From Pseudobdellovibrionaceae bacterium (GTDB lineage: Bacteria > Bdellovibrionota > Bdellovibrionia > Bdellovibrionales > UBA1609), in assembly GCA_023898385.1 (NCBI GenBank), contig CP060220.1:1228993-1292992 (forward strand): a DNA stretch of 64,000 bases. The letters run 5' to 3'. How positions within the stretch are numbered: the first letter of the stretch is position 1; every line of letters begins with the position of its first letter. This document shows, piece after piece, positions 5,959-64,000 of this stretch. Below the pieces are notes generated by a model. It was not told where the DNA came from and made no database searches. It was given only the letters and a program-made list of their open reading frames with translations. Made by a program: the position numbers and the translations under genes.

Positions 5959-5965
5959 ACCTTTT

Positions 5966-6160: not shown

Positions 6161-6175
6161 TTTTGCCCCCTAATT

Positions 6176-6755: not shown

Positions 6756-6770
6756 ATCCTACCTCCATTT

Positions 6771-7723: not shown

Positions 7724-7843
7724 GAATCCATCCCGTTCATTTTTTTATTGTCCCCCGATGCTGCCGTCTGGCACAAATAAAATTGTTAGATTTCAAGACT
7801 TTGTGCTTGGAAGTCGAACAAACAACCAAAGGCCCACACAACA

Positions 7844-8581: not shown

Positions 8582-8589
8582 GTCCCAGA

Positions 8590-14357: not shown

Positions 14358-14753
14358 ATGAAAATCTCACCCAAAGAATTAAATTTTACTTTTTCAAAAA
14401 GCTCGGGTGCCGGCGGACAAAACGTAAATAAGGTCAACACCAAGGTCACATTGCGCTGGAATATCTTTGAATCCTCTAGTGTTTCACAAAAAGTGATTGA
14501 CCGATTTTGCGAGCTCTTTCCCAATAAGATCCTTGATGACGGCACAGTGCAGATTTCAAGCCAGCGCTATCGCCTGCAAGCTCGCAACATTGCCGACTGC
14601 GTAGAAAAATTGCACGTCATGATAGAGAAAGCCGCGCGCCCCAAAAAGCCGCGAAGGCCCACCAAACCCACAACCTCTTCTGTGGAAAAGCGGCTCAAAG
14701 GAAAACGATTACAAAGCGATAAGAAACGCCAACGACAAGGACGAGACGACTAG
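14358..14753 (+). CDS. arfB: alternative ribosome-rescue factor ArfB (peptidyl-tRNA hydrolase, GGQ)
   Basis: SGAGGQNVNKVNTKVTLRW GGQ motif plus a basic C-terminal tail (KKPRRPTKP...KRLKGKRLQSDKKRQRQ). Confidence 0.9.
   Translation: MKISPKELNFTFSKSSGAGGQNVNKVNTKVTLRWNIFESSSVSQKVIDRFCELFPNKILDDGTVQISSQRYRLQARNIADCVEKLHVMIEKAARPKKPRRPTKPTTSSVEKRLKGKRLQSDKKRQRQGRDD
14706..14743 (+). repeat. direct repeat, left copy (arfB 3' end)
   Basis: cgattacaaagcgataagaaacgccaacgacaaggacg. It matches 16271-16308 at 37 of 38 positions, and weaker similarity continues for about 10 nt. Confidence 0.9.
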
Positions 14754-16270: not shown

Positions 16271-16308
16271 CGATTGCAAAGCGATAAGAAACGCCAACGA
16301 CAAGGACG
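16271..16308 (+). repeat. direct repeat, right copy (duplicate of arfB 3' end)
   Basis: cgattgcaaagcgataagaaacgccaacgacaaggacg. In the arfB frame it would read RLQSDKKRQRQGRDYWSRPLAN*. Confidence 0.9.
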
Positions 16309-16495
16309 TGATTACTGGTCTAGGCCTTTGGCGAATTGAATCGCTTTTGTGAACAGAAAATCGCCGCCGCACGTCAGGTGTCTTGCCCAATAGACCCATG
16401 CCACAGCAAAACCCTTAAACTCCACTTCAATGACCTTCGTCTTGTTTATGTTTTTGTTGTATAATCCGATAAGTGAGCACAGAGGTCATCAGAGA

Positions 16496-45416: not shown

Positions 45417-45783
45417 GTTAGCAATGGCAGGCAATCGCCTGATCTCTCGGGATCAGGAGGAAAGTCCGGACTCCGCATGGCAACACAGGGGGTAACGCCC
45501 CTCCACCGTAAGGTGAGGACCAGTGGAACAGAAAGAATGTCCAGAGCTATGATCCTTTAGCCGGGAACGGGAGGCTTTAGGGGAGCTGCTGGAGTGAAAA
45601 CAGCTAAACTCTGTGTGGAGCAAGATCAAATAGGAAAGTGCTTGAGTGCGGCCAGCACAAGCTTTCGGGTAGATCGCTAAAGACATCAGGCAACTGAGGT
45701 CGTAGAGGAATGATTGCCCCAATCTCAAGATTCTCCAGGGCTTGAGATTGAGACAGAATCCGGCTTACAGCCACTGCTAATAT
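45417..45783 (+). ncRNA. rnpB: RNase P RNA, bacterial type A
   Basis: Plus-strand conserved blocks GAGGAAAGTCCGGACTCC, GGTAACGCCC, ACAGAAAGAATG, AGTGAAAAC, GCAAGATCAAATAGG, GGGTAGATCGCT, TAGAGGAATGATTGCC and ACAGAATCCGGCTTAC. P1 pairing joins TTAGCAATGGC (5') with GCCACTGCTAA (3'). Ends are +/- 5 nt. Confidence 0.9.
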
Positions 45784-50585: not shown

Positions 50586-50800
50586 GGGGCGGCCATTAAA
50601 CCCTGAAAACTAAAACTGGGTTTTTTCCTAACATAGCAGCAAAATAGGGTCCAATGAGACCAGGGACAATGAAAAGGAATTACTTGGGTTTATGGATTTA
50701 AATCAGACAACACGAACCTCCCCACGAAATCAGCGCCCCTATTTGTCATCCGTTCGTGTGAACCCTATTCACAACAGACAAACAAAGTGCAAAGCCAAAA

Positions 50801-50967
50801 GGTGACGGCCGGATTTGAACCTCTCGAGAACGCGTCAAAAAGCCAAAGGCTTTTTGACGTGGCCCGTGGTCGAGAGAACGAAGCGAGCCTTGCGAGCGCA
50901 GGGCTCGGAAACCAACAGGGTTCGGCTCCTGTCGAACCCTCCAAATAAAAATGGCCCCAATGGGGCC
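50801..50967 (-). repeat. R1: decayed tRNA-Cys 3'-end core (50801-50821) plus a 146-nt hairpin-rich arm
   Basis: About 95% identical by eye to 51893-52063. The core ggtgacggccggatttgaacc matches the tRNA-Cys copy at 60220-60240 at 20 of 21 positions. Confidence 0.8.
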
Positions 50968-50968
50968 G

Positions 50969-51115
50969 CTTGAGTTTGTCCTAACCTCCCTGAAAAGCCG
51001 TAAACGGCATCGTGGGGCAACGAATATCCCTCAGCTCTACTTTCGCCTCAAGGCAAGCAAAGAGCCTAATCTGCCCACAATCAGAAGAGTTGTCTTTAAT
51101 TGTTCAAGCCCTTAA
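50969..51115 (+). pseudogene. truncated copy of gene X (homologue of 60472..61011)
   Basis: Translates to LEFVLTSLKSRKRHRGATNIPQLYFRLKASKEPNLPTIRRVVFNCSSP*. Compare X residues 26-73, LEFILRHLMDRKRHRETTNVPQLYFKLKAQDEPNLPPLWHFKEVFSLL. It starts immediately after R1 and lacks both the N- and C-terminal parts. Confidence 0.7.
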
Positions 51116-51172
51116 GGACAGCCTCAAAATAACGCCTTGACAATCGTACCAATATAAGGGTACACTGATCTC

Positions 51173-51526
51173 GTGAAATTAGAGGCCCGATTTTTTCAGA
51201 CATCATCAGGAGCCGAGCCCACTCGCACTTTCTTAAAGAAGTTAGCGAAGAAAGACCGTGCTCAAGTAGGAGCATTGATTCGCAAGCTTCAAGTAGAGCA
51301 TTATTTGGAGGCCCCTCACGGAAAAAATCTTGGTGGTGGCCTTTGGGAAATTCGAGCTATAACAGAAGGCGGAAAAATCCGGGTCTTTTATTGTTTTGTT
51401 GGTAAGAAATATGTGGTGTTGCTTCACGCAATTTTAAAGAAGACTCCGAAGACACCCAAAAAAGACATGGATCTTGCTCGTAAACGAAAAAAAATAGTGG
51501 AGGATGACTATGGCAACAAAAAATAA
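51173..51526 (+). CDS. RelE/ParE-superfamily toxin (phage Gp49 / HigB-like)
   Basis: GTG start. FLKKLAKKDRAQVGALIRKLQ...LGGGLWEIRAITEGGKIRVFYCFVGKKYVVLLHAILKKTPKTPKKDMDLARKR is the Gp49-family pattern. Confidence 0.75.
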   Translation: MKLEARFFQTSSGAEPTRTFLKKLAKKDRAQVGALIRKLQVEHYLEAPHGKNLGGGLWEIRAITEGGKIRVFYCFVGKKYVVLLHAILKKTPKTPKKDMDLARKRKKIVEDDYGNKK

Positions 51527-51830
51527 AAAATCGCCTTTGGGTTCTTCATTCGATGAATGGTTAGATGACGAACTTAAAGACGAAGAATTTCAAGAGCACT
51601 TTGACAGTTATAAGGGGCAGCTTGATCTTGGCAATAAGCTTAAAAGCATTGCAGAAGAGCAAGGCTACTCTGTCCGAGGGCTTGCAAAAGCAATGGGCAC
51701 AAGCCCCTCTCAAGTGCAAAGAATGTTTTCTATCACAGCAACGAAATGTACCCTTGAAACCTTAATGAAGTTTTCTGTGATTACAGGCGTTGACCTTCAT
51801 CAAATTTTAAAGACTAAGAAAGCTTCTTAG
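51504..51830 (+). CDS. XRE-family HTH antitoxin
   Basis: Overlaps the toxin by 23 nt. HTH: GYSVRGLAKAMGTSPSQVQRMF. Confidence 0.75.
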   Translation: MTMATKNKKSPLGSSFDEWLDDELKDEEFQEHFDSYKGQLDLGNKLKSIAEEQGYSVRGLAKAMGTSPSQVQRMFSITATKCTLETLMKFSVITGVDLHQILKTKKAS

Positions 51831-51892
51831 AACCGTATAGATCAAAAAAAAAAGGGGGGGGTACCAACAGTTAAGTGAGAATAGCCTTTATT

Positions 51893-52063
51893 TGGAGGCG
51901 GCGGCCGGATTTGACCCTCTCGAGAACGCGGCAAAAAGCCAAAGGCTTTTTGACGTGGCTCGTGGTCGAGAGAACGAAGCGAGCCTTGCGAGCGCCGGGC
52001 TCGGAGACCAACAGGGTTCGACTCCTGTCGAACCCTCCAAATAAAAATGGCCCCAATGGGGCC
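51893..52063 (-). repeat. R2: tRNA-Cys 3'-end core (51893-51917) plus hairpin-rich arm, adjacent to the integrase gene
   Basis: The core tggaggcggcggccggatttgaccc matches 60216-60240 at 23 of 25 positions. The arm matches R1. Confidence 0.8.
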
Positions 52064-52079
52064 CTTTTTTATTTGGAGG
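52034..52079 (-). terminator. long (~20 bp) bidirectional hairpin downstream of int
   Basis: CCTCCAAATAAAAAtGGCCCCaatGGGGCCcTTTTTTATTTGGAGG. Confidence 0.6.
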
Positions 52080-52145
52080 TGAGGTAGCAAGTCCAATTAT
52101 TACCACTACTTGCCAGCCTCATCCACCACGAATCCGCCAGGCAGG

Positions 52146-53291
52146 TCATTTTTGACTCCTATTGAAGAGTTCAACGACCCGTCCCATAGTTTCCTTTCCA
52201 CTGAGGAGCTTGAGGCCCTTGGTGGCTCCCTGAACCTCGATCCCAGCCAACCTGATATATCGCTGCATGGTCTTGAGATCCTTCCAACCACAGATTTTCA
52301 TAACTACGGCTGGAGCTACTCCATCCCGAATGAGCTGGGTGGCAAAGCAGGCTCTCAGGGTGTGAAATTTCACTGAAGGGATACCAGCTCCTTCACAAAA
52401 TTTGCGAAGAATCTGCGCTTGCCTGCCGTCTTTCCAAGACTGATACCTGGGGAGAACAAACTCCCCATGCCTCCGTTTGGTTTTCAGCTCCTTGAGCAAA
52501 CCTAAAACTTGGCTGCCATCAATGGGAACAGTTCGCCAGTATCTCCCCTTGGTTGGGCCAAAGCCATCCTTGTTTGTCCAATTTCGATGGACATAAATGA
52601 CGTTGTTGTCAAAATCCACTTGGTTCCATTGAAGAGCGTAGAGTTCGCCACTTCTCATCCCAGTGAACAAGGCAACAGCCCAAACGGGATACCAGCCATG
52701 ATTGATTTTGAAGGCATACTCCAAGAGGGTTCTAATCTCGGTGAGGTTCAAAATCTCAGGGAGTTTTTCCTCTTCTTTTCGAGTGGACTTGTATCCATCG
52801 GTAGGAATGTAACTGATTCCTTTTACAGTTCCTGAAAGAATGGCCCACTTGAACACAGAATCAATAGCTGTTCGCAATCGCTTGCGGCGACTCACTGAAA
52901 TTTCACGCTCCACTTCATCAAGAGCTGACCAGGCATCTGCCTTGTCAATTTCCTTCACTGGCTTTTCTGCCCAGTGACCAACAAAGCGAGTGAGCACGGA
53001 CCTGTATTCCTCAATCGTACCCTCTGAAATAGACCTTGAGTGCAGCCTGTCCTCTCTCGCTGACAATTCCCAACGGCCAACAAGATCCTTCCACAGAACA
53101 CCTCGATGTTCTAATCTCGATACTTCTTGCTGAGCCGTTCTCAAAAGCTGCTTGCTAATGCGTTTGGCATCTTGCTTAGTTTTTATTCCTGATCTTGACC
53201 GTTCAATACGAATCGTAGGATCGTATTGGCTGCGAACTGACTCACGCACTTGATATAATTTTTGACCTTGTTTTTCATATTCTCTAATCAT
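52146..53291 (-). CDS. int: tyrosine-type site-specific integrase
   Basis: 381 aa. The C-terminal catalytic region has ...FTGMRSGELYAL... (R), ...FHTLRACFATQLI (H-x-x-R) and ...LKTMQRYIRL (Y). Confidence 0.9.
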   Translation of the reverse strand: MIREYEKQGQKLYQVRESVRSQYDPTIRIERSRSGIKTKQDAKRISKQLLRTAQQEVSRLEHRGVLWKDLVGRWELSAREDRLHSRSISEGTIEEYRSVLTRFVGHWAEKPVKEIDKADAWSALDEVEREISVSRRKRLRTAIDSVFKWAILSGTVKGISYIPTDGYKSTRKEEEKLPEILNLTEIRTLLEYAFKINHGWYPVWAVALFTGMRSGELYALQWNQVDFDNNVIYVHRNWTNKDGFGPTKGRYWRTVPIDGSQVLGLLKELKTKRRHGEFVLPRYQSWKDGRQAQILRKFCEGAGIPSVKFHTLRACFATQLIRDGVAPAVVMKICGWKDLKTMQRYIRLAGIEVQGATKGLKLLSGKETMGRVVELFNRSQK

Positions 53292-53569
53292 CGAAAACCT
53301 CCATTTCGTGAGGCTTCAATCAGTCGGTCAAGATCGACACGTTTGAAAAGTAACTTACGTCCACTTCTGTATTGAGGTAGATCGCCACGGCGAGCTTTGG
53401 CCCGAACACTGGCAACCGTTGACCTCATATATACTGCGGCTTCAGTGGCAGTAAGATACTTTTGGTTACTGATTAAGTTGTCAAAGAGCACTGCTGATTT
53501 CAGCTCTCTTCTTTTACTACGAACTCTTTGTAAATCATTGTTTTTTTTCATTGGAACCTCTCTTTTCAC
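53288..53569 (-). CDS. xis: excisionase / AlpA-type HTH DNA-binding protein
   Basis: YLTATEAAVYMRSTVASVRAKARRGDLPQYRSGRKLLFKRVDLDRLI matches the excisionase-family HTH pattern. It overlaps the int start by 4 nt. Confidence 0.75.
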   Translation of the reverse strand: MKREVPMKKNNDLQRVRSKRRELKSAVLFDNLISNQKYLTATEAAVYMRSTVASVRAKARRGDLPQYRSGRKLLFKRVDLDRLIEASRNGGFR

Positions 53570-54296
53570 TTTTTTTATTTTTTACTCCTGGGAATCCATA
53601 GGACAGTCCTCTTGAGCCACTGATGATCCGAGTCCTCTTGGGACGTTCTGGATCGAGAAATGCCAAGAGAAAGTTGCGGTCAAAAAAGTAGCCGAGCAGC
53701 CCTTCCAAATCCTGAGCCACCTCGAACCGTTCTGGGAACACCAAGGTTTCTTGAGGGCCAAGCTGCCGAGCCTTCTTTCTGAACAGCCCAAAGGCTTCCT
53801 CTTGAATCAGATAGTGGACGTGAGGGGTGGCACATCTTTCACCAATGCCTATGGTTCTGATGTACTTGCCGATCTTCCCAGACATCGCCTTACTAAGCAC
53901 AGGGGAGTACCTCAGTAACTTTCCCCAAGGATTTTCACCATCCTGAAGCGGCCAACTCACAATGCAGTGGACATTGATTTCGTACTTTTCAGCAAAGCGA
54001 ACCCCACTGTTGATGAAGTGGTTACGCCTGCGAAAACGACAGGACGGACAGGTCATGCGTTTACATGGCCAGTTGTCACTGCACCTCAATGGTCGGCGTA
54101 GAATTTGTCTGGAATTAAGCGTACTCCCCTCCCTAAAATGGGTAGGGGAGTTTTTCGTTGGGACTTGGGGAGCATTGTTAGGCACAGCTTCCCCCTTCCT
54201 CGGTGGTGTTTTCCGAATTAGGCCAGCCCTCACCAAGCCCCAGCGTCGTTGCAAATTGCTGAATCTCCTCTTCAGAAATTTGTGTGCGGCCTGCAA
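53535..54296 (-). CDS. putative rolling-circle replication initiator (HUH endonuclease-like)
   Basis: CPSCRFRRR zinc-ribbon-like segment and TPHVHYLIQ (an H-hydrophobic-H motif). The start is uncertain because it overlaps the upstream HTH ORF. Confidence 0.45.
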   Translation of the reverse strand: MQAAHKFLKRRFSNLQRRWGLVRAGLIRKTPPRKGEAVPNNAPQVPTKNSPTHFREGSTLNSRQILRRPLRCSDNWPCKRMTCPSCRFRRRNHFINSGVRFAEKYEINVHCIVSWPLQDGENPWGKLLRYSPVLSKAMSGKIGKYIRTIGIGERCATPHVHYLIQEEAFGLFRKKARQLGPQETLVFPERFEVAQDLEGLLGYFFDRNFLLAFLDPERPKRTRIISGSRGLSYGFPGVKNKKSEKRGSNEKKQ

Positions 54297-54417
54297 CTAT
54301 ATTCACCAGGCGGTCATAACTCAGATTGTAGTGCTGTGATGCCTGCCACAGGCTTCCGAACTGAAATATGAGCTGCCTGCGTAGCTCTGGCAGTTTTGTG
54401 CTTCTTTGTTCTCTCAT
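54178..54417 (-). CDS. small HTH regulator (Cro/Ner-like)
   Basis: 79 aa; GSLWQASQHYNLSYDRLVNIVAGR is HTH-like. Confidence 0.5.
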   Translation of the reverse strand: MREQRSTKLPELRRQLIFQFGSLWQASQHYNLSYDRLVNIVAGRTQISEEEIQQFATTLGLGEGWPNSENTTEEGGSCA

Positions 54418-54518
54418 TGTACCTCCTTCAAAAGTAAATTTTCTGAAGAAGAGATACAGCCAACAGGTAGCGATTGTAATGTTCTCGAAATCGCTCTTTC
54501 TCGCCTTTTGGGAACAAA

Positions 54519-55460
54519 TTAGCTTAGCAGAAGAAGTATTTGCTCAAGCCTTTTAAGTTGTACGAATCCATCCAGGCCGAAGCCATGCAAAGGGTCACTG
54601 TGTTTCTTATAATTTTGGATTTTACGATTCCAGTCCAGATTTACACCAAGGCGACCCAATAATTTTTCACAAAACTCTTTGGCTTGACCTGCACTATCAA
54701 AGCATTTTTTTTCATAGAGTGCCTTCAACAGAAATAGGGATGGAATCATTTTCAGTTTTTTGATGTTTCCTTTTTTGCCATACTCCAAAGCTAACCCACC
54801 TTCTTCATAGAGGCTTAACAAGATTGATGATAAATAATCAGCAACGTCGTTAACTTGCTTCCCGAGGTGCGAAGATTTATTGAAGTGAGCGTCTAACTCC
54901 GTCCGATCTCCCTGAAGAGTAAAAACAAGGATGTCCTGCTCTAAATCAACCACCTTTGTAAACTGTCTAATTCTATCAAGGGCTGGTCTGAACTCGACGA
55001 GTCTCATACCTTTGTCTTTACCAACCTTAACACCCATTTCCTTTAGCTTCGCTCCAATGGCGGAGACTGCTTGATTCAGATCAAAATCGACAGCCATGTG
55101 TGCAATCAGATAGTACTGGATTAGAGCAAAACGGCTTGAGTCTATAGGCCAAATTTGTCTTAGATCAAATGTTGAAAGTTTACCCTCTAATTCTTTCAAA
55201 TCGACGACTGAATCTTCCATACTTAGTCTTGGGTGCATTGCAAGTAACTCCTCAGCAGCTTCTGATAGCTTGGACTTTGTAACAGCAACATCCAGATTCA
55301 ATGGTTGCCCCATTGAGGTGTGCATTAGCCTTTCTGAAACAGCTTTTAGGAGGTCAGCCACATCACTTACAGTTGGTGCTGCCTTCTTTATGACTCCAAA
55401 GAGAGCCTTAGAAAGATCAGTCTCAATATGGTCCAAATATGGAATGTCTGGTTTTCTCAT
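54519..55460 (-). CDS. hypothetical 313-aa protein, first gene of the leftward element operon
   Basis: Long ORF with no motif recognised. It is divergent from the TerS-like gene across a 70-bp region. Confidence 0.55.
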   Translation of the reverse strand: MRKPDIPYLDHIETDLSKALFGVIKKAAPTVSDVADLLKAVSERLMHTSMGQPLNLDVAVTKSKLSEAAEELLAMHPRLSMEDSVVDLKELEGKLSTFDLRQIWPIDSSRFALIQYYLIAHMAVDFDLNQAVSAIGAKLKEMGVKVGKDKGMRLVEFRPALDRIRQFTKVVDLEQDILVFTLQGDRTELDAHFNKSSHLGKQVNDVADYLSSILLSLYEEGGLALEYGKKGNIKKLKMIPSLFLLKALYEKKCFDSAGQAKEFCEKLLGRLGVNLDWNRKIQNYKKHSDPLHGFGLDGFVQLKRLEQILLLLS

Positions 55461-55530
55461 GGTCTTTTATCGGTAAAACGGCCTGAAGATAAAATGTCGA
55501 TCTCTGCGTAAAAAATTGGTACGTTGAGGT

Positions 55531-56034
55531 ATGGCGAGACCGACAAAATATCAGCCTATTTACTGCGAAAAAGTTGTAAAGCACTGTGCTAAGGGTCACA
55601 GCTTCGAGACCTTCGCTACCTCAATAGGAGTTTCGAGCCGTACAGTAAGGAACTGGGCAACAAACTTTCCAGAGTTTTCTGAAGCCTGCGAAAATGCCAA
55701 AGTGGCAGCCTTATATTTTTTTGAAAAACAACTCCTTTCTGGTATCAGTGGTCGGTCCAAGAAAAATGCGGCATTGCTGATCTTTACTTTGAAAACCAGA
55801 TTCCACGAAGTCTATGGGCAACCCAAATTAGAGATTGAGGCACAGGTAGGTATTGACCCTCCAGGTACGTTCGAGTTCAAGGGCAGAAAAGTAACTGGGG
55901 CTGAGCTTGGCGTTGAAGAGCTTGAAGAAGCCACTCAAGACCTCAAGGATCAAATCAAGGAAAAGGAAGCAAAAATCTATGCCCTTGAAAATGACCCCGA
56001 TCCACTTACTGAATGTGAGTCCTCTTTTTTATAA
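55531..56034 (+). CDS. terminase-small-subunit-like HTH protein
   Basis: MARPTKYQPIYCEKVVKHCAKGHSFETFATSIGVSSRTVRNWATNFPEFSEACENAK follows the common TerS N-terminal pattern (RPtKY.pe....i......G.s......igvs.rTv..W....peF). C-terminal coiled coil. Confidence 0.45.
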   Translation: MARPTKYQPIYCEKVVKHCAKGHSFETFATSIGVSSRTVRNWATNFPEFSEACENAKVAALYFFEKQLLSGISGRSKKNAALLIFTLKTRFHEVYGQPKLEIEAQVGIDPPGTFEFKGRKVTGAELGVEELEEATQDLKDQIKEKEAKIYALENDPDPLTECESSFL

Positions 56035-56095
56035 GCGGAAAAAACTCCAGGGAAGAGGTTTTTGGGGGAAATGATAAATTAGAAATAGGCGATGC

Positions 56096-56887
56096 CTATT
56101 TCTTAAAAGCCATCATAGGACTGTCAAGCAGGCTAAATGATAGAGGGCTTGACTCTTTCCCTGGAAAAATCAGACTCTTTGCGTCCTCGCCCAACCTATA
56201 AACCAGGTGTACGGGTTCTTTTTTGTTTTTCCACACCCCAGCGAAGGACTCGCAATTTGCCTTAGCCTTTTCAAGGTTACTGTAAAAGTCATAGGGCAAT
56301 TTTTTATCTTTTGGGAGCTCAGTGTTTTCAACCTCACTGCTCAGATAAACAAGTTCCGATTTCAAATTCGCCAGCCTCAGGTATCTATTCGAAGAATCGC
56401 CAAGCAATGTGTTGCGTTCTACCAAAATTGTATCTTGAACAGTTGCAGTAACCTTCAACGTACATTCACCTCTACCTACAGAAAACTGTGTACACTCTTT
56501 CTTACCGTCGTCATGCTCGTAGCAATCACAGTGTTCGGCATTTGCTGGGCAGCTTTGGACCTCTTCAGAAACGTAGTACTCAAAAAACTCTTTACTAAAT
56601 TCAAAAGTCAGGCTTTTGGACTCTTGCTCCAGGGACATATATGATTTGCCACACCTTTGCCCAAACACCAGACGAGTGATTTTGTCAGAGGGTTTCCCTG
56701 TGAAATAATCATGACAATAGCCTTCCCACTCACCAGTTAGTTTAGGGGTTTCTTCAGCAGTTGTGACAGTTGTCTTTTCTTTTGGGCTAAAATCAGGGGC
56801 AATAGGCTTGTCAAAAGTAGGTCCACACGCCATCAAAAGAGAGCAAGTCAAAATCCCCAAGAAAATTTGATTTCGGTTTACACTCAT
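56096..56887 (-). CDS. lipoprotein, Cys-rich, unknown function (element cargo)
   Basis: Lipobox LLMAC. 263 aa. Confidence 0.6.
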   Translation of the reverse strand: MSVNRNQIFLGILTCSLLMACGPTFDKPIAPDFSPKEKTTVTTAEETPKLTGEWEGYCHDYFTGKPSDKITRLVFGQRCGKSYMSLEQESKSLTFEFSKEFFEYYVSEEVQSCPANAEHCDCYEHDDGKKECTQFSVGRGECTLKVTATVQDTILVERNTLLGDSSNRYLRLANLKSELVYLSSEVENTELPKDKKLPYDFYSNLEKAKANCESFAGVWKNKKEPVHLVYRLGEDAKSLIFPGKESSPLSFSLLDSPMMAFKK

Positions 56888-56894
56888 TTAAGAC

Positions 56895-57833
56895 TCACCA
56901 TTCACTATGACGAAGCAAGCAGGATGCCTCTATTGCAACCTTTTTCTTTCCATCATCACTTGTACAATTTGTCGAAATCTGTAGAGCAGCACCCTTACGA
57001 TCAATCGTATGGATACAGTTAGTCACATCCTCCGCAAATGTGCCACCCTCAGATTTGACTCCAACTCTTGCCTTGGAATTAGAATTTACCGATTTTTGGG
57101 GTCCATTCAGGTCAAGGTTGACGCCGCTAAACGTGATAGACACATAGTCACGGCTCGAATCACTCCCCACAGAATCTCCATCAACCTCAAGGATCATATA
57201 GTAAAACTGAAGTTTATCTTCGTTGTTTAGCGAACAATTGATCGAATCATGCAACCCTTCCTGCTCATAGTTTGTTCGACCAGCAACTGTTTTGTCGATT
57301 TCAAGATTAGCAAGCCCTTCACGTTCAACACTGGCCTTAATACTCTGCTTGAAGGTCAGTGATTGGGCTGTTTTGGTTGCCAACTTGCTCTCGTTGATAC
57401 GCTTAAACACATGCTTAACCCCTTGGGGGCTATTCCCCTCAGAAAGAAATTCAAGGGTCAGAGAATTGCTTGAGTAGCTATGAACAACAAAGTCGGTCAT
57501 TGAGAAATTTTCTTCGTCTATCGTGATAACCTTATTGCCTTCAACTTTGTATGGTAGCTGTGGCTCTGAGAAATGAACAAAATCAGTGCTGATAAGAGTA
57601 AGTGTTTTTTCGTCGATTTGGAGCTGAGTCCACTCTGAAACATTTCTATCAGCATAAGGATTGTTGGGGTCGGGGCGATTTGGCTTCATGGATTGACCAT
57701 TGAAAAACATGGAGTCAATTTCCCAAGCACCAATAATTGCCTTGAAAATCCCAGCCTTACTGTTTCCCGATCCACCTTTTCCGCCGCAACCCACGGCAAG
57801 AATCGCTGTGAGGGCTATAAGTATTTTTTTCAT
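56895..57833 (-). CDS. lipoprotein with lipocalin-like N-terminal region (element cargo)
   Basis: Start MKKILIALTAILAVGC (lipobox). GAWEIDSMFFNG...TLTLIS...YKVEGNKVITI is lipocalin-like. Confidence 0.6.
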   Translation of the reverse strand: MKKILIALTAILAVGCGGKGGSGNSKAGIFKAIIGAWEIDSMFFNGQSMKPNRPDPNNPYADRNVSEWTQLQIDEKTLTLISTDFVHFSEPQLPYKVEGNKVITIDEENFSMTDFVVHSYSSNSLTLEFLSEGNSPQGVKHVFKRINESKLATKTAQSLTFKQSIKASVEREGLANLEIDKTVAGRTNYEQEGLHDSINCSLNNEDKLQFYYMILEVDGDSVGSDSSRDYVSITFSGVNLDLNGPQKSVNSNSKARVGVKSEGGTFAEDVTNCIHTIDRKGAALQISTNCTSDDGKKKVAIEASCLLRHSEW

Positions 57834-58107
57834 GCTTGCCTCCAATTTTGGCATAGGACTCACCCTGTACTGCTAATACAGTCCACTTTGATGAATACTC
57901 TTAATTCTAAGTGCTTAAATAGCAAAGGGTGTGCCTGATGACCAGGGCAAAACCTTTCCGCCAACTCTCCACCAGAAATCCGCCATTTTGATTTATGGTG
58001 AGTGATGTTCAGTAATGTAAAGTACGTGTCGATCCGACTAACTGATTGAAACCATTTGTTTATAATTTTAGTGATTTACCATTTTTTGAGCCTCGGCCAG
58101 GCTGTAA

Positions 58108-59996
58108 ATTACCGAGTAGCCGAGGCAGCTGGCATTACCACCAGCCCCTCAGCCCTCACCGAACCGTACGTACGCGTTCACGTATACGGCTCTCCCAGAT
58201 TAAAGCAAGCTACCTTGCTTGTGGTCGAGATGATTGGGTATCACACCTATAGGCTTTATAGGTCTCCATATGGTCTTGGCTACCTTCGTCAGTTTGCGCC
58301 ACGGCACCGGGCGACCGCCTCTCCGGTACTTCCGCTTGAGGTACTGGTAGATTTGGCGGCGTACGGAATGGAGTTCTCGGTAAATGATGCTGTTGCCGTT
58401 CGAATACCGAAAGTAATTGCACCAGCCTCGCCATACCGATTGCACCACATCCCGCGCCTCATTCATTGTAAGATGAACGTGGAGCTTCTCCTTGAGACTG
58501 GCCTTCAAACTGCGACGGGCCTTTTCTGATGGTTGCCTAGCAATCCAAAATCGCTCAGGGTTATCAGTGAAGGCCCGAAGGTGAATCTTAAACCCCAGAA
58601 AATCAAACTTCGATTGATGGCTACGCCGTTCATTGGTCATATCCACCTCTCGAGTCTTACTCTCTTTGAGACTAAGTTCTCCCTCGCGCATCCATATGTA
58701 TAAAAATCTTCGAGCCGTCTTGAGTTCAGCCTGCGTTTTTGCTGTAATCACAAAATCATCAGCATAACGGAATAGCTTCACCCTAGAGCTTTGCCCATAG
58801 ACTTCCATAAATCTTTCATCAAGCACATGGTGGAGGTAAACGTTGGCTAGCAATGGCGACAGCGGCCCCCCTTGCGGGGTCCCTTTACCACTGGGCTGCC
58901 AAGGCTTACCGGGCTCCTGAAAACCTGACTTAAGCATCTGGCTGATCAACCGGAGAATTCGGGGATCACAGATCTCTCTTGTCAGCATTTTTAAGAGTTT
59001 ATTGTGACTGACTTGATCGAAGAACTTCTCGATGTCAGCCTCCAAGATGTGTCGATGGCGGTAGACTTGTTGAGCCACTTTGGCTACACAATCTACCGCT
59101 TTCCTATGCGGCCGAAACCCATAGGAACAATCATGAAACCTTTGCTCGTAAACCACCTCCAATAGCAGTACGAGCACCCGTTGGACCACGCGGTCCTCCA
59201 GGTTAGGAATACCCAAAGGCCTTTGCTCCCCATTGCTTTTGGGGATGTAAGTGCGTTTGACCGGACCCGGTTGATAAGTCCTCACTCTGAGTCGCTCACT
59301 CAGATCTTTCACGAAATCCCATTCCTTGCCCTTAACCGACACTACGGTAACTTGGTCAAGACCCGCGCTACCGCGGTTCTTAATCACCAACTCTAGCGCA
59401 TCAGCCAGGAGGTATGGGTCTGTAAGATAGCGATATAGATCCCACTGCTTACGACCTTTCTTTGCATGCTCGGCCACCCGGATCCGAATGTGTCTTGTTT
59501 GTGGGCTAAGGGACATGTACTTCCTAGCCCCGGTTGGATGTTGGTTCATCTCAAGATCCTCATTACATACACAATTGCAAATCCAAGTTCCTTCTGGACC
59601 TGACAACCCCTTCCTCTGACTTCGTCCGTTGAGTCTCGACAGGTTTCCTTGTCTTCGTGAGTACTATGGGTGTCTCTGACTTCTTTTACGACACCTGATT
59701 GGAGCTTATTGACTTCACTCCTTTGGTTGTGAAGGCTTCAACCTCCTCCACTGTCTTAAAAGATCTCTCCGGTTAACTTCTATGACTCTCATTCACCCGC
59801 CCCCAGCCAGTGACAAGGATGCTGCCGTGAGGGCAAACCCAGAGTTCTCCCGCACAGTCTTGCCTTCTACGTCGCCAACCGCTTGGGCCTAGCATCGTCT
59901 TCCCAGCGAGATGAGAGCTTCGAAGGAGCGAGGCTCATCGAAGCCGCCTTATTAGCTGTTCACTTGTGTTGAGGCTGATGAATGTTACTTGCGCAC
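58108..59996 (-). mobile_element. group II intron (~1.9 kb, endonuclease-less, compact, class C-like size)
   Basis: 5' end GTGCGC at 59996 (GUGYG). Domain V at 58161-58192 is GAGCCGTATACGTGAACGCGTACGTACGGTTC, with the AGC triad. Domain VI has a bulged A at 58117, 9 nt before a ...AAT end. The RT ORF sits in domain IV. Ends are +/- a few nt. Confidence 0.8.
58200..59549 (-). CDS. group II intron reverse transcriptase/maturase (no HNH/En domain)
   Basis: Start MNQHPTG. RT motifs RPLGIPNLEDRVVQ, LEADIEKFFDQVSH, GTPQGGPLSPLLANVYL and RYADDFVI. Maturase X region WRGWCNYFRYSN. It ends shortly after domain X. Confidence 0.9.
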   Translation of the reverse strand: MNQHPTGARKYMSLSPQTRHIRIRVAEHAKKGRKQWDLYRYLTDPYLLADALELVIKNRGSAGLDQVTVVSVKGKEWDFVKDLSERLRVRTYQPGPVKRTYIPKSNGEQRPLGIPNLEDRVVQRVLVLLLEVVYEQRFHDCSYGFRPHRKAVDCVAKVAQQVYRHRHILEADIEKFFDQVSHNKLLKMLTREICDPRILRLISQMLKSGFQEPGKPWQPSGKGTPQGGPLSPLLANVYLHHVLDERFMEVYGQSSRVKLFRYADDFVITAKTQAELKTARRFLYIWMREGELSLKESKTREVDMTNERRSHQSKFDFLGFKIHLRAFTDNPERFWIARQPSEKARRSLKASLKEKLHVHLTMNEARDVVQSVWRGWCNYFRYSNGNSIIYRELHSVRRQIYQYLKRKYRRGGRPVPWRKLTKVAKTIWRPIKPIGVIPNHLDHKQGSLL

Positions 59997-60215
59997 AGTA
60001 CCTCGTGCCGCTTTTCGCCTGCTACTTAACTCCCGTGGGTCACCCCAACCGAAAGCCGCAGGAGGTTTTAGTCGGCGGGTCTGGGCCCTTCCGACACCAC
60101 TTGCCACAGCGAACGATCTTCGACAAATCGGCTGCGCCGATGTTCGACTCCCGAAGGGGCTTACATCTCGGAACGACTGTGAGTGGTAAAGTCATAGAGT
60201 CATCTTCGGACGAAA

Positions 60216-60284
60216 TGGAGGTGGCGGCCGGATTTGAACCGGCGTACACGGATTTGCAGTCCACTGCCTAGCCACTCACAGGGC
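60216..60284 (-). pseudogene. tRNA-Cys(GCA) lacking the 5' acceptor strand (att site / truncated gene)
   Basis: The minus strand reads ...GCCCtgtgagtggctAGGCaGTGGActGCAaaTCCGTgtacGCCGGttcaaatCCGGCcgccaccTCCA. The D-arm, anticodon arm (GCA), T-arm, U73 discriminator and CCA are present. The 7 nt that should pair with CGCCACC read tcaattt. Confidence 0.75.
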
Positions 60285-60471
60285 TTAAATTGAAAAAATC
60301 AAAGATTTAAAGGATTGCTAATTTAAGATTTCAACAACATTATATTGTTGTAATATTTACCTTATTTTAGCAATTTTGAGCAAAATAATCCACTTTTAGC
60401 TGTTAAATTATCAAATAAATGCTAATGTTATTTTAAATTGTTCCGATAGGTTGTTCTAAAAGGAGATTTGC

Positions 60472-61011
60472 GTGAAGAACCTCAGCGAAGTCGAAAAGAG
60501 CCTCCACGAAATTGTGGCCAACACCCACCCTGATCTAAGGGAGAGTCTGGAGTTCATTCTGAGACACCTTATGGACCGTAAGCGACATAGAGAGACCACC
60601 AATGTTCCACAGCTCTATTTCAAGCTAAAAGCTCAAGACGAGCCGAATTTGCCCCCTCTATGGCACTTCAAAGAAGTCTTTAGTCTCTTGGCAGAGGTTG
60701 GCGTGGGAAAACTGGATGAAACCACTCGTGATATGCGTTTTATGTTTCTCTATGAAGTTCAGTCCGTCGGGGCCTGTGGCCTGGGAAAAGGACACCTAAA
60801 ACTAACGCCGAACCAAGCCTCTGATGAAAATACTCAGCCCGAAGAGGAGTTGAGCCCCATGGCTTTGGTCCACAGAACTCTTTCTGTTGAAGTCCCTTTA
60901 AAAAACGATCGAAAAGCAAAGCTTACCCTTCCATTGGATCTAACCAATAGTGAATGGAAGAAGATCTATCAAATTGCGAGCAAAGCAAGGGAGAGCCGGA
61001 TTAAGAATTGA
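60472..61011 (+). CDS. gene X: hypothetical 179-aa protein (intact copy)
   Basis: GTG start after a AAGGAG RBS. Homologous to the pseudogene at 50969-51115. Confidence 0.6.
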   Translation: MKNLSEVEKSLHEIVANTHPDLRESLEFILRHLMDRKRHRETTNVPQLYFKLKAQDEPNLPPLWHFKEVFSLLAEVGVGKLDETTRDMRFMFLYEVQSVGACGLGKGHLKLTPNQASDENTQPEEELSPMALVHRTLSVEVPLKNDRKAKLTLPLDLTNSEWKKIYQIASKARESRIKN

Positions 61012-61087
61012 CAGCTGTACCACTTTAAAGACTCCAAAAATGAATCAAACCTTTGCACGTTAAAAAAAGAAAATTGCATAGATACAA

Positions 61088-61255
61088 GGCTATTCTGTGA
61101 GAGCTTTAGCTGAAGCAGTGGGGACCAGTCTTTCTCAGGTACAAAGAATGTTTTCAAGCACAGCAACCAAATGCACGCTAGAAACACTTATGAAGTTTTC
61201 GGTGATTACTGGAGTGGATCTCCATAGAATTCTTAAAATAAACAAGGCATCTTAA
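61088..61255 (+). pseudogene. 3' fragment of an XRE antitoxin gene (paralogue of 51504..51830)
   Basis: Reads GYSVRALAEAVGTSLSQVQRMFSSTATKCTLETLMKFSVITGVDLHRILKINKAS*, versus GYSVRGLAKAMGTSPSQVQRMFSITATKCTLETLMKFSVITGVDLHQILKTKKAS* in the intact gene. There is no start codon, and the toxin gene is absent. Confidence 0.8.
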
Positions 61256-61353
61256 GCCTCAACTCTTTTTATCTCCGCACTCCTCGAATTTATTTCACAG
61301 GGGAACTCTTCTGAGCCCTGACGAAACAAAGTTCAAGGGCCTTGGAGGTAAAA

Positions 61354-62334
61354 ATGAAACACTTAATTCTTCTCTTAACACTTACCATTCTGACAGGTTG
61401 TGGATCCAAGGAAAATTCACCACCATCAGCTCCACCTGTTGGCATCGAACCTTGTGTTGATTGCATTCCTGAAGATGACCCATTGGGGCGAATAACTAAG
61501 ACTGATTACACTCTTAATGACCTCTGGCAAGAGGGATTTCCGAAAGACAATCTTGATGCTGAACATCACACATACTTAAAAGGTAATGGTTTTGAGATTG
61601 CTCCTATTAAAAACGACCTGTATGGCAGAGCTTTTTACTTAGAAAAAGTTCATTGTGGTGGAATTACTGACCAAAGAACCTATGTTGGCTTCACTGATGA
61701 ATACACCAAAAACTCACAAATTCTTATTAGAATTACGGGAAATAGGATTGAGCAATTCTCCTACCGGACAACTATTAATTCCAATCCATCAGCCTATGCG
61801 CAAGTTGAGAAAATTTCCGAAGAGACTTGGGATTGCGTAGAGGGAGTTTTACATCGACCTGGGGATGTCAATTATGGAACTCCGGACAGCGACAACTATT
61901 TGGCTTTGGGATCTATTGCTGTTGGTAAAATAGGAACCTGGTTTGTATTGGCATTTCAAGATAACTCAATCAATCCGACACTTCCTGGCACCACAGAATA
62001 CTATCAGGTTCTTTATAAAAGTGGTTTTCTACAACCGACAAATAACCAAGAGATTACAATTGGCAAAAATAACCCAGCAAAGCTTATCTACTACGACAAC
62101 GGATTTATACAGTGTGAATACACAGCGAACTCAAACATTTTTAGCCAAATCATCTCAGGTAATATAAATACAAGAATTTTTACTGCGCACAGCGGGATCC
62201 AACAAGAGAAAGCTCACTTTATTCAAATCAAGAATCTTTCCGACAAAAATAATCAACCAAAAGAATGCATTTACGGGAATTTTTCAGAAGATTTAAACAC
62301 AAAATTTATTGATCTCGTCATGGCTTGCAAATAA
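61354..62334 (+). CDS. lipoprotein, unknown function
   Basis: ATG after a GGAGG RBS. MKHLILLLTLTILTGC lipobox. Confidence 0.65.
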   Translation: MKHLILLLTLTILTGCGSKENSPPSAPPVGIEPCVDCIPEDDPLGRITKTDYTLNDLWQEGFPKDNLDAEHHTYLKGNGFEIAPIKNDLYGRAFYLEKVHCGGITDQRTYVGFTDEYTKNSQILIRITGNRIEQFSYRTTINSNPSAYAQVEKISEETWDCVEGVLHRPGDVNYGTPDSDNYLALGSIAVGKIGTWFVLAFQDNSINPTLPGTTEYYQVLYKSGFLQPTNNQEITIGKNNPAKLIYYDNGFIQCEYTANSNIFSQIISGNINTRIFTAHSGIQQEKAHFIQIKNLSDKNNQPKECIYGNFSEDLNTKFIDLVMACK

Positions 62335-62344
62335 GGAGTGTGCA

Positions 62345-62941
62345 ATGTTTTTAGCTAAGCTTATTTATTTTTTATTACTTTTAAGTGAAATAATTCTAAC
62401 TGCAATAAAAATTCTCACCTTGATAGCCTTCACATTATTCCTAACATCTGTTCCCACTATTGGAGTCGGTCTATTTCTTGACCGAATTCCTTGGCCAGTA
62501 GACTTTCCTTTGCTTCTCATAATTGGGGCAGTAGCAACGGCCATGGCACTTTTTAAATTTACAATTGGTCAAGTGCGCAAGACAAAGAACCTTCTAATTG
62601 CCATCATATATAATAGAGAAGACTGTTTGATGAAAATTCAAAATCTATTTGAGCGAGATCAAAAACTTAGGGCTTCAATTGAATGCCTAGAAAATGAATT
62701 CCAAGCCAAAAAGGTCAAACTCGATGAACAATTGAAAAAGCAAGAGCTGGCCATAAAAGAAGCCAATATTAAAATGGCTCAAAATATAGAGAAGCATAAT
62801 AACCATATCATAAAGCTAAAAAACAACGTCGATCAGGAACTCCATGCTTATGCACTTAAAAAAGCCATAGAGCGTTTTGCCGGAGATAAGGCAATTGAAA
62901 AAGCGGCTCTGAAGAAAACTGGAAACGACTGGGATCATTAG
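62345..62941 (+). CDS. membrane protein (2-3 TM) with cytoplasmic coiled coil
   Basis: Start MFLAKLIYFLLLL after an AGGAG RBS. The C-terminal half is heptad-rich. Confidence 0.55.
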   Translation: MFLAKLIYFLLLLSEIILTAIKILTLIAFTLFLTSVPTIGVGLFLDRIPWPVDFPLLLIIGAVATAMALFKFTIGQVRKTKNLLIAIIYNREDCLMKIQNLFERDQKLRASIECLENEFQAKKVKLDEQLKKQELAIKEANIKMAQNIEKHNNHIIKLKNNVDQELHAYALKKAIERFAGDKAIEKAALKKTGNDWDH

Positions 62942-63162
62942 TGGGCATTGATCCAAATAGCAGCGTCGTCAATATGGGGCCAGAGCGGTCGAATTTTGAC
63001 AATTTTTGTCATTCCAGTCTGGCATTTTTTGTACTTATGATTTGATTGCCTTCAAAATCTTCTTCAGAACAAAAATATCAGCCTCTTAGACGATCTAAAC
63101 TAGGAATGGAATTTGTAATTACTGCAAGCGTAAATAAAATTGACACGTTTTTGGAGAAAACA

Positions 63163-64000
63163 ATGAAAAAGCTAATTCTTGCAGGAAGTTTAATAGCCTT
63201 ATCCTCAATATGGGTGGCATGTGATTCTAAATTTGTAGAATCCTCCCCTGATTCTGTCCAGCTCAGTGGTATAACACTTGATGAGCGATTAACTCAAAAG
63301 GCTGAGATTGATGAGAGAATCAATCAAATTGACCAAGGAGTTGAAAAGGTAAAAAGAATCATTGATCTGTTTAAAAAGATTCAAAACCCTGATCAAGCAC
63401 AAGATGTTTATACCCCGATAGATTTTGTACTTGATGTCAATGCAGAACTAAAAGCTAAAATCCCTGAAAACCGAGACGGTCGCCTTGTCCGATATAGCAA
63501 AATTGAACTTCCTCTCACAGTATTGTCTGAAGAATGCAGAACACTCCATACCTCCCTCGAATCAAGCGTCATCTACGAAGAGTCCGATGAGGAATCAACT
63601 ACTGAGTCTACAGAGAAAAAAGCCATCGGTGAGAAACTGACTTATTCTTTTCGTTCATGCGCTTCAGAAGAAAAGTACCTCGTTGCTGTTGAGGCTAACT
63701 GGATCGGTTCAAACTTAGAGATTAAGTTGAACAATGAAAATTTAGAAACAATTTTCAAAGACATCGTAGTTAACGAGGTTTTAAAAGATTCCGCATGTAG
63801 AATCACTCAAGACTCCGAGAAAATTATCGACACCATTCACTGCTCAAACATTAAGGTTCAACTTTCAAACAGTGAAGATGCCATGGTTAATGATATGATT
63901 TTCAATAATTCCGGTGAAGTTCGATTTGAAGCTAATGCCGATATTTTTGAGAATGCTCGCAAAAAAGCAACTTCAGAAATCACAGTCCTTGCGAATGGCG
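63163..64000 (+). CDS. lipoprotein, 5' part (runs off window end)
   Basis: Not in the ORF track because there is no stop. MKKLILAGSLIALSSIWVAC lipobox. The frame is open to the end of the window. Confidence 0.6.
   Translation, partial: MKKLILAGSLIALSSIWVACDSKFVESSPDSVQLSGITLDERLTQKAEIDERINQIDQGVEKVKRIIDLFKKIQNPDQAQDVYTPIDFVLDVNAELKAKIPENRDGRLVRYSKIELPLTVLSEECRTLHTSLESSVIYEESDEESTTESTEKKAIGEKLTYSFRSCASEEKYLVAVEANWIGSNLEIKLNNENLETIFKDIVVNEVLKDSACRITQDSEKIIDTIHCSNIKVQLSNSEDAMVNDMIFNNSGEVRFEANADIFENARKKATSEITVLANG

Follow-up and report, generated by a model that had tools for sequence, protein, structure and literature searches.

Introduction

The question raised by this locus is whether a small island in the genome of a predatory bacterium could be a phage satellite. 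The island occupies positions 51893-60240 of a 64-kb window (the whole stretch of DNA that was analysed), and the source of the window is a metagenome-assembled genome (MAG) of the Pseudobdellovibrionaceae, that is, of a Bdellovibrio-like predatory bacterium. The island is about 8.3 kb long with a group II intron and about 6.2 kb without it. It encodes a tyrosine integrase (Int), an excisionase (Xis), a putative rolling-circle replication protein of the HUH type (Rep) and a protein similar to the small terminase subunit (TerS) of tailed phages. An earlier note, made from the letters of this DNA alone, had proposed a new satellite lineage in such a host, and its guess of the host agrees with the source genome.

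We consider that there is about an even chance that the island is an integrative, self-replicating phage satellite, similar to PICIs, tycheposons or VEIMEs, which would replicate by a rolling-circle mechanism. This reading is favoured because the genes provide for integration, excision, replication and packaging specificity, and no other transfer machinery is present.

Results and Discussion

The island and its attachment site

The island is real and is bounded at the right exactly by an att core. Two 25-nt cores, listed with the other features in Table 1, are found as direct repeats at the two ends, which bears out the interval proposed in the earlier note. They are identical in 23 of 25 positions and are the sole matches in the window at up to three mismatches, with 0.00 expected in shuffled sequences; a third, more diverged core is located at 50797-50821. 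On the minus strand the repeat reads ...GGTTCAAATCCGGCCGCCACCTCCA and corresponds to the T-loop, acceptor strand, discriminator U and CCA of tRNA-Cys(GCA). The integrase gene and the repeats of a tRNA 3' end at both ends identify the island as an integrative element of the tyrosine-recombinase type inserted at a tRNA gene.

The likeness to tRNA-Cys at 60216-60276 continues through the GCA anticodon arm into the D-loop, while the 5' acceptor strand and the D-stem are missing. Because the 5' acceptor strand is missing, no tRNA is called by ARAGORN in the 64-kb window and no Rfam tRNA reaches the gathering score. An intact tRNA-Cys at 60216-60290 was considered and rejected, as there is no ARAGORN call and only the 5'-truncated fragment is present. 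Neither junction of the island restores an intact target tRNA. The fragment is probably a 3' piece displaced by the right-hand neighbour, designated here as element C, and the intact tRNA-Cys may be located beyond window position 64000.

The integrase-proximal arm and the core together form a 168-nt repeat (51896-52063), the second copy of which is found at 50800-50967 and is 95% identical. The possibility that this repeat is a tmRNA or tRNA-like RNA gene was rejected. It has no Rfam match at the gathering score, and a match of 14-16 bits to the tmRNA 3' end is obtained only because the core is tRNA-like; the 'tRNA-like' 3' end on the plus strand is merely a perfect 10-bp hairpin. In the arm at the tRNA side, AAATCACTAA and TTTCAATCAGTTAGT are short motifs similar to those in the corresponding arm of another element (L014, described below), but the likeness is weak, as 0.16 occurrences of the first motif on its own would be expected by chance. 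The island was also scanned for promoters, terminators and repeats that might reveal an origin, a pac site or operators, with nothing above background, and a conserved nick-site hairpin was looked for in the island and not found.

The Rep protein

The replication protein likely starts at 54185, which gives 216 amino acid residues as in the gene call of Logan contig L001, and not at 54296 as the earlier note had it. It matches no family in Pfam, PHROGs, NCBIfam or PADLOC, and tblastn against 50,697 GenBank phage records gave no match. Nine homologues were found among 5.8e9 clustered proteins; loci of the family number three among 185,579 species genomes and two in Joint Genome Institute (JGI) metagenomes. 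The alignment shows as invariant features four cysteines, C35, C41, C46 and C49 (C-x5-C-x4-C-x2-C), a VSW strand, and the motifs TPHxH(Y/L)L and LGYxxDxN. Within these, TPH122xH124 and Y166 are invariant across 10 Rep sequences, and the succession of motif I, HUH and then Tyr is the order typical of Rep proteins.

The AlphaFold2 (AF2) model (pLDDT 78.7, pTM 0.72) has the HUH motif on the central strand, residues 121-128, and the tyrosine on the following helix, residues 160-176. An HUH motif on a strand with a C-terminal tyrosine on a helix places the protein in the Rep class of the HUH endonuclease superfamily. The matches found by Foldseek in the PDB are led by AAV2 Rep, parvovirus NS1 and SIRV1 ORF119, all of them weak (E 0.025-0.09) and intermixed with unrelated ferredoxin-like folds. 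Comparison with BFVD gives 103 matches at E<=1e-3, the top one with E 2.6e-6 and probability 1.0; among the 50 best, all matches that have a name are either replication initiators of Microviridae or putative VP4 replication proteins from uncultured viruses. The HUH-like initiator suggested in the earlier note is therefore supported by the invariant motifs and by the matches of fold in both PDB and BFVD. From the motifs and the predicted fold we conclude that Rep is a putative HUH rolling-circle initiator. Its clade had not been classified before, and in structure it comes closest to microvirus VP4.

It is important to compare this protein with the initiators of the Microviridae VP4 and phiX174 gpA type. 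The predicted fold is alike, with HUH followed by Tyr. However, Rep is shorter, has a single conserved tyrosine rather than the YxxxY pair, shows no detectable sequence similarity to them, and is encoded in an integrase island that has no microvirus capsid genes.

The TerS-like protein

The TerS-like protein of 167 residues matches phrog_309, 'terminase small subunit', at 9.4e-18 over residues 1-119, and four further TerS PHROGs. The Pfam family Sf6_terminase is below the cut-off for the protein in the window and matches 11 of 13 members of its family, the best at 4.9e-6; the profile of the family finds Sf6 gp1 in the PDB with E 0.04. By tblastn 160 phage records are matched, and among the matches listed most are annotated as TerS. 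They include Alcaligenes CASP1 (1e-15, a phage gene with no annotation beyond 'hypothetical'), Salicola CGphi29 (41% identity, 2e-14), Brucella Tb ORF01 (38% identity, 6e-11) and gp43 of the Bdellovibrio phage phi1422 (34% identity over residues 1-101, 3e-14). Among phages of this host group the closest TerS is that of phi1422, where gp43 is found directly upstream of the large terminase subunit (TerL) gp44 and the portal protein gp45. Bdellovibrio phage phi1402 was also considered as a source of this match and was rejected, since it shows no similarity and the match is to phi1422.

In the AF2 model (pLDDT 74) a helix-turn-helix (HTH) and a long helix are succeeded by further helices, a beta hairpin and a C-terminal helix. 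The top five Foldseek matches in the PDB are all Sf6 gp1, with probability 1.0 over about 129 columns, TMt 0.52-0.56 and an rmsd of 8 Å for the monomer model, and the next matches have E>1. The N-terminal HTH is homologous to that of phage TerS, as the earlier note had suggested, and the profile match, the phage tblastn matches and the Sf6 gp1 fold agree in this. The resemblance extends beyond a generic HTH because homology is seen at three independent levels, those of profile, sequence and full-length predicted fold, and a function in packaging may be proposed.

Sf6 gp1 and phi1422 gp43 share with the predicted structure of this protein the N-terminal HTH, the long helices as in the oligomerisation core of Sf6 gp1, and then the beta hairpin. 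In contrast to the phage genes, the gene of the island has no adjoining TerL or portal gene, similarity to phage TerS is found only within residues 1-101, and the C-terminal helix of about 30 residues lies beyond the aligned region. No TerL gene is present in the island or in the region of the window that was examined; a lack of its own TerL is what would be expected for the TerS of a satellite.

Other genes of the island

The genes for the 79-aa regulator, Rep, Xis and Int form one leftward operon of overlapping genes on the minus strand. The element retains all six of its genes in intact form, with the overlaps within the operon. Xis scores 35.1 bits against the NCBIfam excisionase domain TIGR01764 (cut-off 28.8). 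The integrase is 71% identical to that of the related tRNA-Cys element L005 and 47% identical to that of L014. The 79-aa protein is kept at the same position in the relatives L005, L024, L025 and L004, and its HTH-like pattern suggests that it is probably a regulator. The earlier note had described it as a small Cro-like HTH; the profile match is weak (phrog_2967 at E 0.07).

The 313-aa protein has no match in Pfam, PHROGs, NCBIfam or PADLOC and a single homologue among 1.84e9 representative proteins. In the relatives this slot upstream of the small regulator contains proteins of 216-250 residues that are unrelated by blastp to the 313-aa protein, and across the family (216-313 residues) no blastp similarity is found between the subgroups. 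The TerS-like gene diverges from the 313-aa gene across a 70-nt intergenic region. Of the two cargo proteins with lipoprotein signals, that of 263 residues has no family match in the same four databases, and that of 312 residues has no significant one.

No capsid, tail, portal, TerL or conjugation gene is found in the island by Pfam, PHROGs, NCBIfam and PADLOC, in agreement with the earlier note, and there are no lysis genes. The genes listed in that note are all present. However, 47% of the interval (3.9 kb) had been overlooked, namely the two lipoprotein cargo genes and the 2.1-kb group II intron, and the tandem array in which the island is found had been missed as well.

Table 1. Features of the island and its immediate neighbours (window coordinates)
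Feature	Positions	Strand	Evidence or remark
att core, integrase-proximal copy, 25 nt	51893-51917		TGGAGGCGGCGGCCGGATTTGACCC; complement of tRNA-Cys 3' end
att core, tRNA-side copy, 25 nt	60216-60240		TGGAGGTGGCGGCCGGATTTGAACC
tRNA-Cys(GCA) fragment, 5'-truncated, D-loop to CCA	60216-60276	-	last 25 nt are the tRNA-side att core
Integrase-proximal non-coding arm	51918-52145		two perfect hairpins and a bidirectional terminator (52049-52063)
tRNA-side non-coding arm	57834-58107		would adjoin the att core were the intron absent
Tyrosine integrase, 381 aa, full length	52146-53291	-	Pfam Phage_integrase 3.5e-23; phrog_1 1e-56
Excisionase/AlpA-type HTH, 87-93 aa	53288-53569	-	HTH_17 2.1e-9; overlaps int by 4 nt
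Putative HUH-type rolling-circle Rep, 216 aa, N-terminal Cys4 knuckle	53535-54185	-	motifs and predicted fold
79-aa small protein, first operon gene	54178-54417	-	overlaps Rep by 8 nt
313-aa orphan protein, variable slot of the family	54519-55460	-	upstream of the operon
TerS-like protein, 167 aa	55531-56034	+	Sf6 gp1-type HTH, long helices, beta hairpin, C-terminal helix
Cargo, 263-aa protein, lipoprotein signal (…LLMAC)	56096-56887	-	sequence
Cargo, 312-aa protein, lipoprotein signal (…LAVGC)	56895-57833	-	sequence; gene call in L001
Group II intron, about 2.1 kb	58108-60215	-	inserted directly after tRNA-Cys CCA; RT/maturase 58200-59516; domains V/VI 58111-58194
Left integrase-less remnant, 1.1 kb	50797-51892		bounded by att cores; 95% copy of the 168-nt arm; 179-aa-gene fragment
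Element C, about 12 kb	60277 to beyond 64000		continues in L014 8783-20840, L015 and L016

Related elements

Related int/Rep/TerS-like cassettes were sought in other genomes, as the earlier note had advised, and about ten related loci were found (Table 2), all with the order Rep-Xis-Int. Where enough sequence is available, most of them adjoin a tRNA gene for Cys, Arg, Glu, Val or Ser. Four of them (L005, L008, L013 and L025) have direct repeats of the tRNA 3' end and range in size from 4.4 to 10.5 kb. Besides L019, the loci include relatives with 44-57% identity in Rep. The element is thus not fixed, a possibility considered in the earlier note: a different element is found at the same core in another sample, and the relatives are located at several tRNAs with their own repeats.

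Table 2. Loci related to the island
Locus	Source	Neighbouring tRNA	Repeat or contig limit	Size or remark
L005-7	Logan, three samples	tRNA-Cys	10-nt repeat	4.4 kb
L025	Logan	tRNA-Cys	10-11-nt repeat	5.3 kb; complete, intact 381-aa int, both att copies
L024	Logan	tRNA-Cys	contig ends inside int	incomplete
L008	JGI metagenome	tRNA-Glu	17-nt repeat	6.2 kb
L013	Bdellovibrio sp. HCB337 (CP178621), complete genome, 1816-12309	tRNA-Val	20-nt repeat	10.5 kb
L003/L011	MAG	tRNA-Arg	contig ends	incomplete
L020	JGI metagenome	tRNA-Ser	no repeat found	size undefined
L012	MAG	tRNA-Asp and tRNA-Phe about 4 kb downstream	no repeat found	size undefined
L019	JGI metagenome	none in contig	contig too short for repeat	81% nt identical, collinear with window

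A TerS-like gene is present in seven of ten contexts (the window, L019, L005, L024, L025, L003 and L013). All four tRNA-Cys members have it at the same position, in a common architecture of tRNA-Cys, cargo, TerS-like gene (reversed), variable gene, 72-79-aa gene, Rep, Xis, Int and repeat. The TerS-like gene of L013 belongs to another TerS PHROG (phrog_4102, 2.2e-22), and this element also encodes a serine invertase, an Arc-like repressor and a CI-like repressor. Cargo differs among the members: lipoproteins in the window, proteins of 401-446 residues in L024 and L025, and the invertase and repressors in L013. In none of the family members is a capsid or scaffold gene of a microvirus found. The possibility that the 5.3-kb Logan contigs L024 and L025 are circular or extrachromosomal forms was rejected, since they have no terminal overlap and are integrated copies.

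A possible life cycle

The integrated state is seen directly, with the island lying between two copies of the tRNA-Cys 3' end and with intact genes for the tyrosine integrase and the excisionase. A trigger, presumably infection by a helper phage, could be sensed by the 79-aa HTH protein and/or the fast-evolving 313-aa protein, and the operon of the 79-aa gene, Rep, Xis and Int would be switched on. Xis and Int would then release the island as a circle, and the putative HUH Rep would nick an origin and drive rolling-circle replication to yield multimers. The TerS-like protein, presumably as a ring, could bind the island DNA and recruit the TerL of a tailed helper, supplied by a phage similar to phi1422, so that concatemers would be packaged by the headful mechanism. 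After delivery, Int would reinsert the island at tRNA-Cys. Small satellites with int, alpA and replication genes that are packaged as concatemers, some with terS, are documented, and in PICMIs and VEIMEs the packaging of concatemers follows replication of rolling-circle type (PMC10803314; 10.1101/2022.07.26.501625; 10.1101/2020.12.28.424599).

Several observations weigh against a satellite. Induction, packaging and a helper are purely inferred for this island. No contig with a circular junction was found, and a look-up of the integrase returned the same contig only. The identity to the TerS of phi1422 is only 34% over the N-terminal 101 residues, and no helper was found. Three relatives, L008, L012 and L020, have no recognisable TerS. 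In IMG/VR viral contigs neither relatives of Rep nor close relatives of the TerS-like protein were found by pattern-based scans, which have limited sensitivity. The integrase genes of L005, L006 and L007 contain the same in-frame TAG at 11133-11135 in three independent samples, which suggests that this lineage is decaying and that the copy is apparently fixed. The copy in the window may itself no longer move, because its tRNA is 5'-truncated, its repeats differ at 2 of 25 positions and an intron is inserted between the core and the arm. In addition, we know of no described satellite with an HUH Rep as its replication module.

A reading less extreme than the parasitism of microviruses considered below has, in our estimate, somewhat short of an even chance. 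According to it, the island represents the first satellite lineage of the Bdellovibrionota, in which the HUH Rep would make concatemers and the TerS of phi1422 type would load them.

Alternative explanations

The TerS-like gene could have a role other than packaging. The island might be a helper-independent integrative rolling-circle replicon, or a shuttle for cargo, comparable to integrative plasmids or to the tycheposons that carry cargo. It would be excised, be maintained as a small replicating plasmid and move by transformation, vesicles or generalized transduction, with the TerS-like protein serving as a DNA-binding regulator or accessory factor. Int, Xis and Rep are universal in the family, while the TerS-like gene is absent from three of ten contexts and the cargo varies between members; most tycheposons also have no packaging genes (10.1101/2020.12.28.424599). 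The divergent arrangement of the TerS-like and 313-aa genes with a 70-nt spacer would suit a repressor. However, the position of the TerS-like gene varies between subfamilies (L003 and L013), so that the gene is not tied to an operator region. The likeness to the Sf6 gp1 fold is not confined to the HTH and also takes in the beta hairpin and the helices of oligomerisation, and among the matches listed the nearest relatives are mostly genuine TerS proteins of tailed phages, including a Bdellovibrio phage. We regard this explanation as unlikely.

The neighbourhood of the island suggests that it could instead be an integrative mobilizable element. The HUH protein would then be a relaxase that acts at an oriT, transfer would depend on a conjugative element such as the adjacent element C, and the tandem accretion would be of the kind known for integrative and conjugative elements (ICEs), integrative mobilizable elements and cis-mobilizable elements (CIMEs). 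Element C has a set of genes like those of an ICE or its actinomycete type (AICE), with a faint Rep_trans match, an FtsK/SpoIIIE-like ATPase and an integrase, and the att-flanked, integrase-less remnant at 50797-51892 resembles a CIME. It is also generally known that proteins similar to rolling-circle Reps can act as relaxases, for example in the MOBT family. Against this, the motif order is of Rep type with the tyrosine C-terminal to HUH, no relaxase or MOB family is matched in Pfam or NCBIfam, and the best fold matches of Rep are viral replication initiators. Such a neighbour is absent from the relatives at other tRNAs: in L003, L008 and L013 the tRNA is followed by host genes. The recurrent TerS homologue would also be left unexplained. 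This explanation has a rather low probability.

The state of the copy in the window raises the possibility of a relic, either a decayed and immobile remainder of such an element or the leftover of an integrated microvirus-like prophage, now inactive. The truncated tRNA, the imperfect repeats, the intron between the core and one arm, the stop codon in the integrase gene of L005-7 and the similarity of the Rep fold to Microviridae VP4 could all be understood in this way. However, the six element genes are intact with their overlaps kept, and the architecture is conserved both in the collinear L019 (81% identical) and in relatives with Rep identities of 44-57%. The complete element L025 has an intact 381-aa integrase and both att copies, no member has a microvirus capsid or scaffold gene, and the att site is occupied differently in other samples. 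A relic is thus improbable.

That the family parasitises single-stranded DNA (ssDNA) microviruses instead of, or besides, tailed phages is very improbable; the idea comes from the VP4-like fold of Rep and from the minimal members of 4.4-6.2 kb, as microvirus VP4/gpA couples rolling-circle synthesis directly to procapsid loading, the minimal members (4.4, 5.3 and 6.2 kb) are within the size range of microvirus genomes, and gokushoviruses such as phiMH2K are known to infect Bdellovibrio.

Comparison with known satellites

If the island is a phage satellite, it is important to compare it with the described families. PICI-like tycheposons of Prochlorococcus and marine VEIMEs are similar in being small tRNA-targeting elements with a tyrosine integrase, an excisionase, a compact replication module by the integrase and an optional terS. 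They also have no structural genes, and tandem arrays and remnants are found at tRNA hot spots (10.1101/2022.07.26.501625; 10.1101/2020.12.28.424599). The island differs from them in having a 216-aa HUH Rep and not a primase, helicase or polymerase, in its Bdellovibrionota host and in its smaller core unit (4.4-6.2 kb). The likeness to tycheposons is one of architecture.

The PICMIs of Vibrionaceae are about 6 kb long, encode an integrase, an AlpA/excisionase HTH and a replication protein, do not remodel capsids, and are expected to be packaged as concatemers (PMC10803314). Their defining features are a DUF3987/DUF5906 primase and a site of integration beside fis, and TerS is absent (PMC10803314). 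The island, in contrast, lies at tRNA-Cys, encodes a TerS homologue and has an HUH Rep and no primase. A DUF5906 primase and AlpA are present in L014, the alternative occupant of the same att site.

The classical PICIs and SaPIs have in common with the island an integrase, an excisionase, an autonomous replication initiator, their own TerS redirecting helper packaging, and a lack of structural genes. The island is about half their size and has no pri-rep or primase-helicase, no ppi, cpm or rpp, and no recognisable repressor of Stl type; its gene order also differs, with Rep-Xis-Int in one operon that ends at the att site. A PICI was defined here, in the manner of SatelliteFinder, by int, alpA/xis, pri-rep and one or more packaging genes in about 10-15 kb without structural genes. 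The island has int, xis and terS and no structural genes, but the HUH Rep replaces pri-rep and the length is 6.2 kb. It lies outside the PICI and PICMI families because the defining primase is absent. It is best filed with the small tRNA-targeting satellite-like islands, from which it is set apart by the unclassified HUH Rep and the Bdellovibrionota hosts. As regards the new lineage proposed in the earlier note, functionally analogous small tRNA-targeting elements with int, xis, replication and terS genes (tycheposons, VEIMEs and PICMIs) had already been described.

To our knowledge, described phage satellites replicate with primase-helicases or initiators of RepA_N type. If it is a satellite, the unit of 4-6 kb with int, xis, HUH Rep and TerS would add rolling-circle initiators of microvirus type to the replication modules of satellites, and it would be among the smallest self-replicating ones. 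Predatory Bdellovibrio-like bacteria, the phage biology of which is almost unexplored, would thereby gain their first candidate satellite family. Were parasitism of microviruses true, an integrative satellite of an ssDNA phage would be seen for the first time. Bdellovibrio sp. HCB337 is a cultured carrier of the 10.5-kb relative at tRNA-Val, which makes the question testable, and phi1422 is a sequenced phage with a homologous TerS.

The group II intron

The sequence between the tRNA-side arm and its core is a group II intron, with both a reverse transcriptase (RT)/maturase gene (RVT_1 1e-38, GIIM; TIGR04416 341 bits, cut-off 300) and domains V/VI (Rfam RF00029, 48.9 bits, gathering score 40). 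It is present in several copies in the source population, one of which adjoins an AbiEi/AbiEii pair. A further contig, L017 (GCA_020434665.1), contains copies at 1-1767 and 3524-4625, the second of them degenerate. The 3' end of the intron is fixed at 58107/58108 because the first L017 copy diverges from the window at this point and because Logan contig L001, which is 100% identical, ends in a break at 58136, about one k-mer into the repeat. The second copy matches the window up to the base after '...CCACCTCCA' ('...CCTCCACCA' in L017), and this limit of shared sequence places the start of the mobile unit at 60211-60215, right after the tRNA CCA. The unit begins with UUUCGUCCG, so that the canonical GUGYG 5' end is not found there; GUGCG occurs only 219 nt inward, at 59996. 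The Rfam D1-D4 models and the pairing of exon- and intron-binding sites (EBS/IBS) are both ambiguous as to the 5' splice site. The two 5' flanks have CC(A/T)CC(T/A)CCA in common.

The intron parts the att core from the tRNA-side arm, and the element proper is therefore about 6.2 kb. It is a later passenger outside the architecture of the family, and may impair the excision of the copy in the window.

The tRNA-Cys hot spot and its neighbourhood

The island is one unit of a tandem array, between a left remnant and element C on the right. The left remnant looks like a leftover of tandem integration of the CIME type and contains a pair of HigB-like (51173-51526) and HigA-like (51504-51830) genes. 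A run of A10 followed by G8 is located in it at about 51843-51861.

Element C encodes a 364-aa integrase, a DNA methylase, a DUF2958 protein and a 326-aa lipoprotein, together with a 179-aa gene, an ATPase similar to FtsK/SpoIIIE and a protein that faintly matches Rep_trans. The set is like that of an ICE or AICE, and the G+C content of element C falls to 34-40%. Over window positions 60216-64000 the contigs L014, L015 and L016 are 99.8-100% identical to the window, and they run on for about 12 kb. In L014 and L016 it is precisely at 60216 that the contig starts or its identity changes. In L014 (Logan SRR12358675), positions 1-8721 are a different element to the left of the same att core, with a 383-aa integrase, HTH_17, a 694-aa DUF5906 primase and AlpA, and also DUF6978, DUF1828/1829, SNase and HTH_3. 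This architecture is like that of P4 and PICMIs, with a related integrase (47% amino acid identity). In L015 unrelated genes follow the same core. The island is strain-variable, because L014 and L015 have other sequence at this core.

The T-arm of the tRNA-Cys fragment reads GACAGGATTCGAACCTGC in L015 (2686-2750) and GGCCGGATTTGAACCGGC in the window (60216-60280). The difference is consistent with a 3' end that was replaced, after successive integrations, by copies carried on the elements. At least three unrelated types of element, with HUH/TerS, primase/AlpA and Rep_trans/FtsK genes, alternate or stack at the tRNA-Cys site, which is a hot spot.

A bacterial RNase P RNA of class A (222 bits) is located at 45419-45783 on the plus strand, so that the region to the left of the array is ordinary chromosome. 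Elsewhere in the window, a 41-nt direct repeat, 95% identical, is found at 14706-14746 and 16271-16311, 1.5 kb apart and unrelated to the island.

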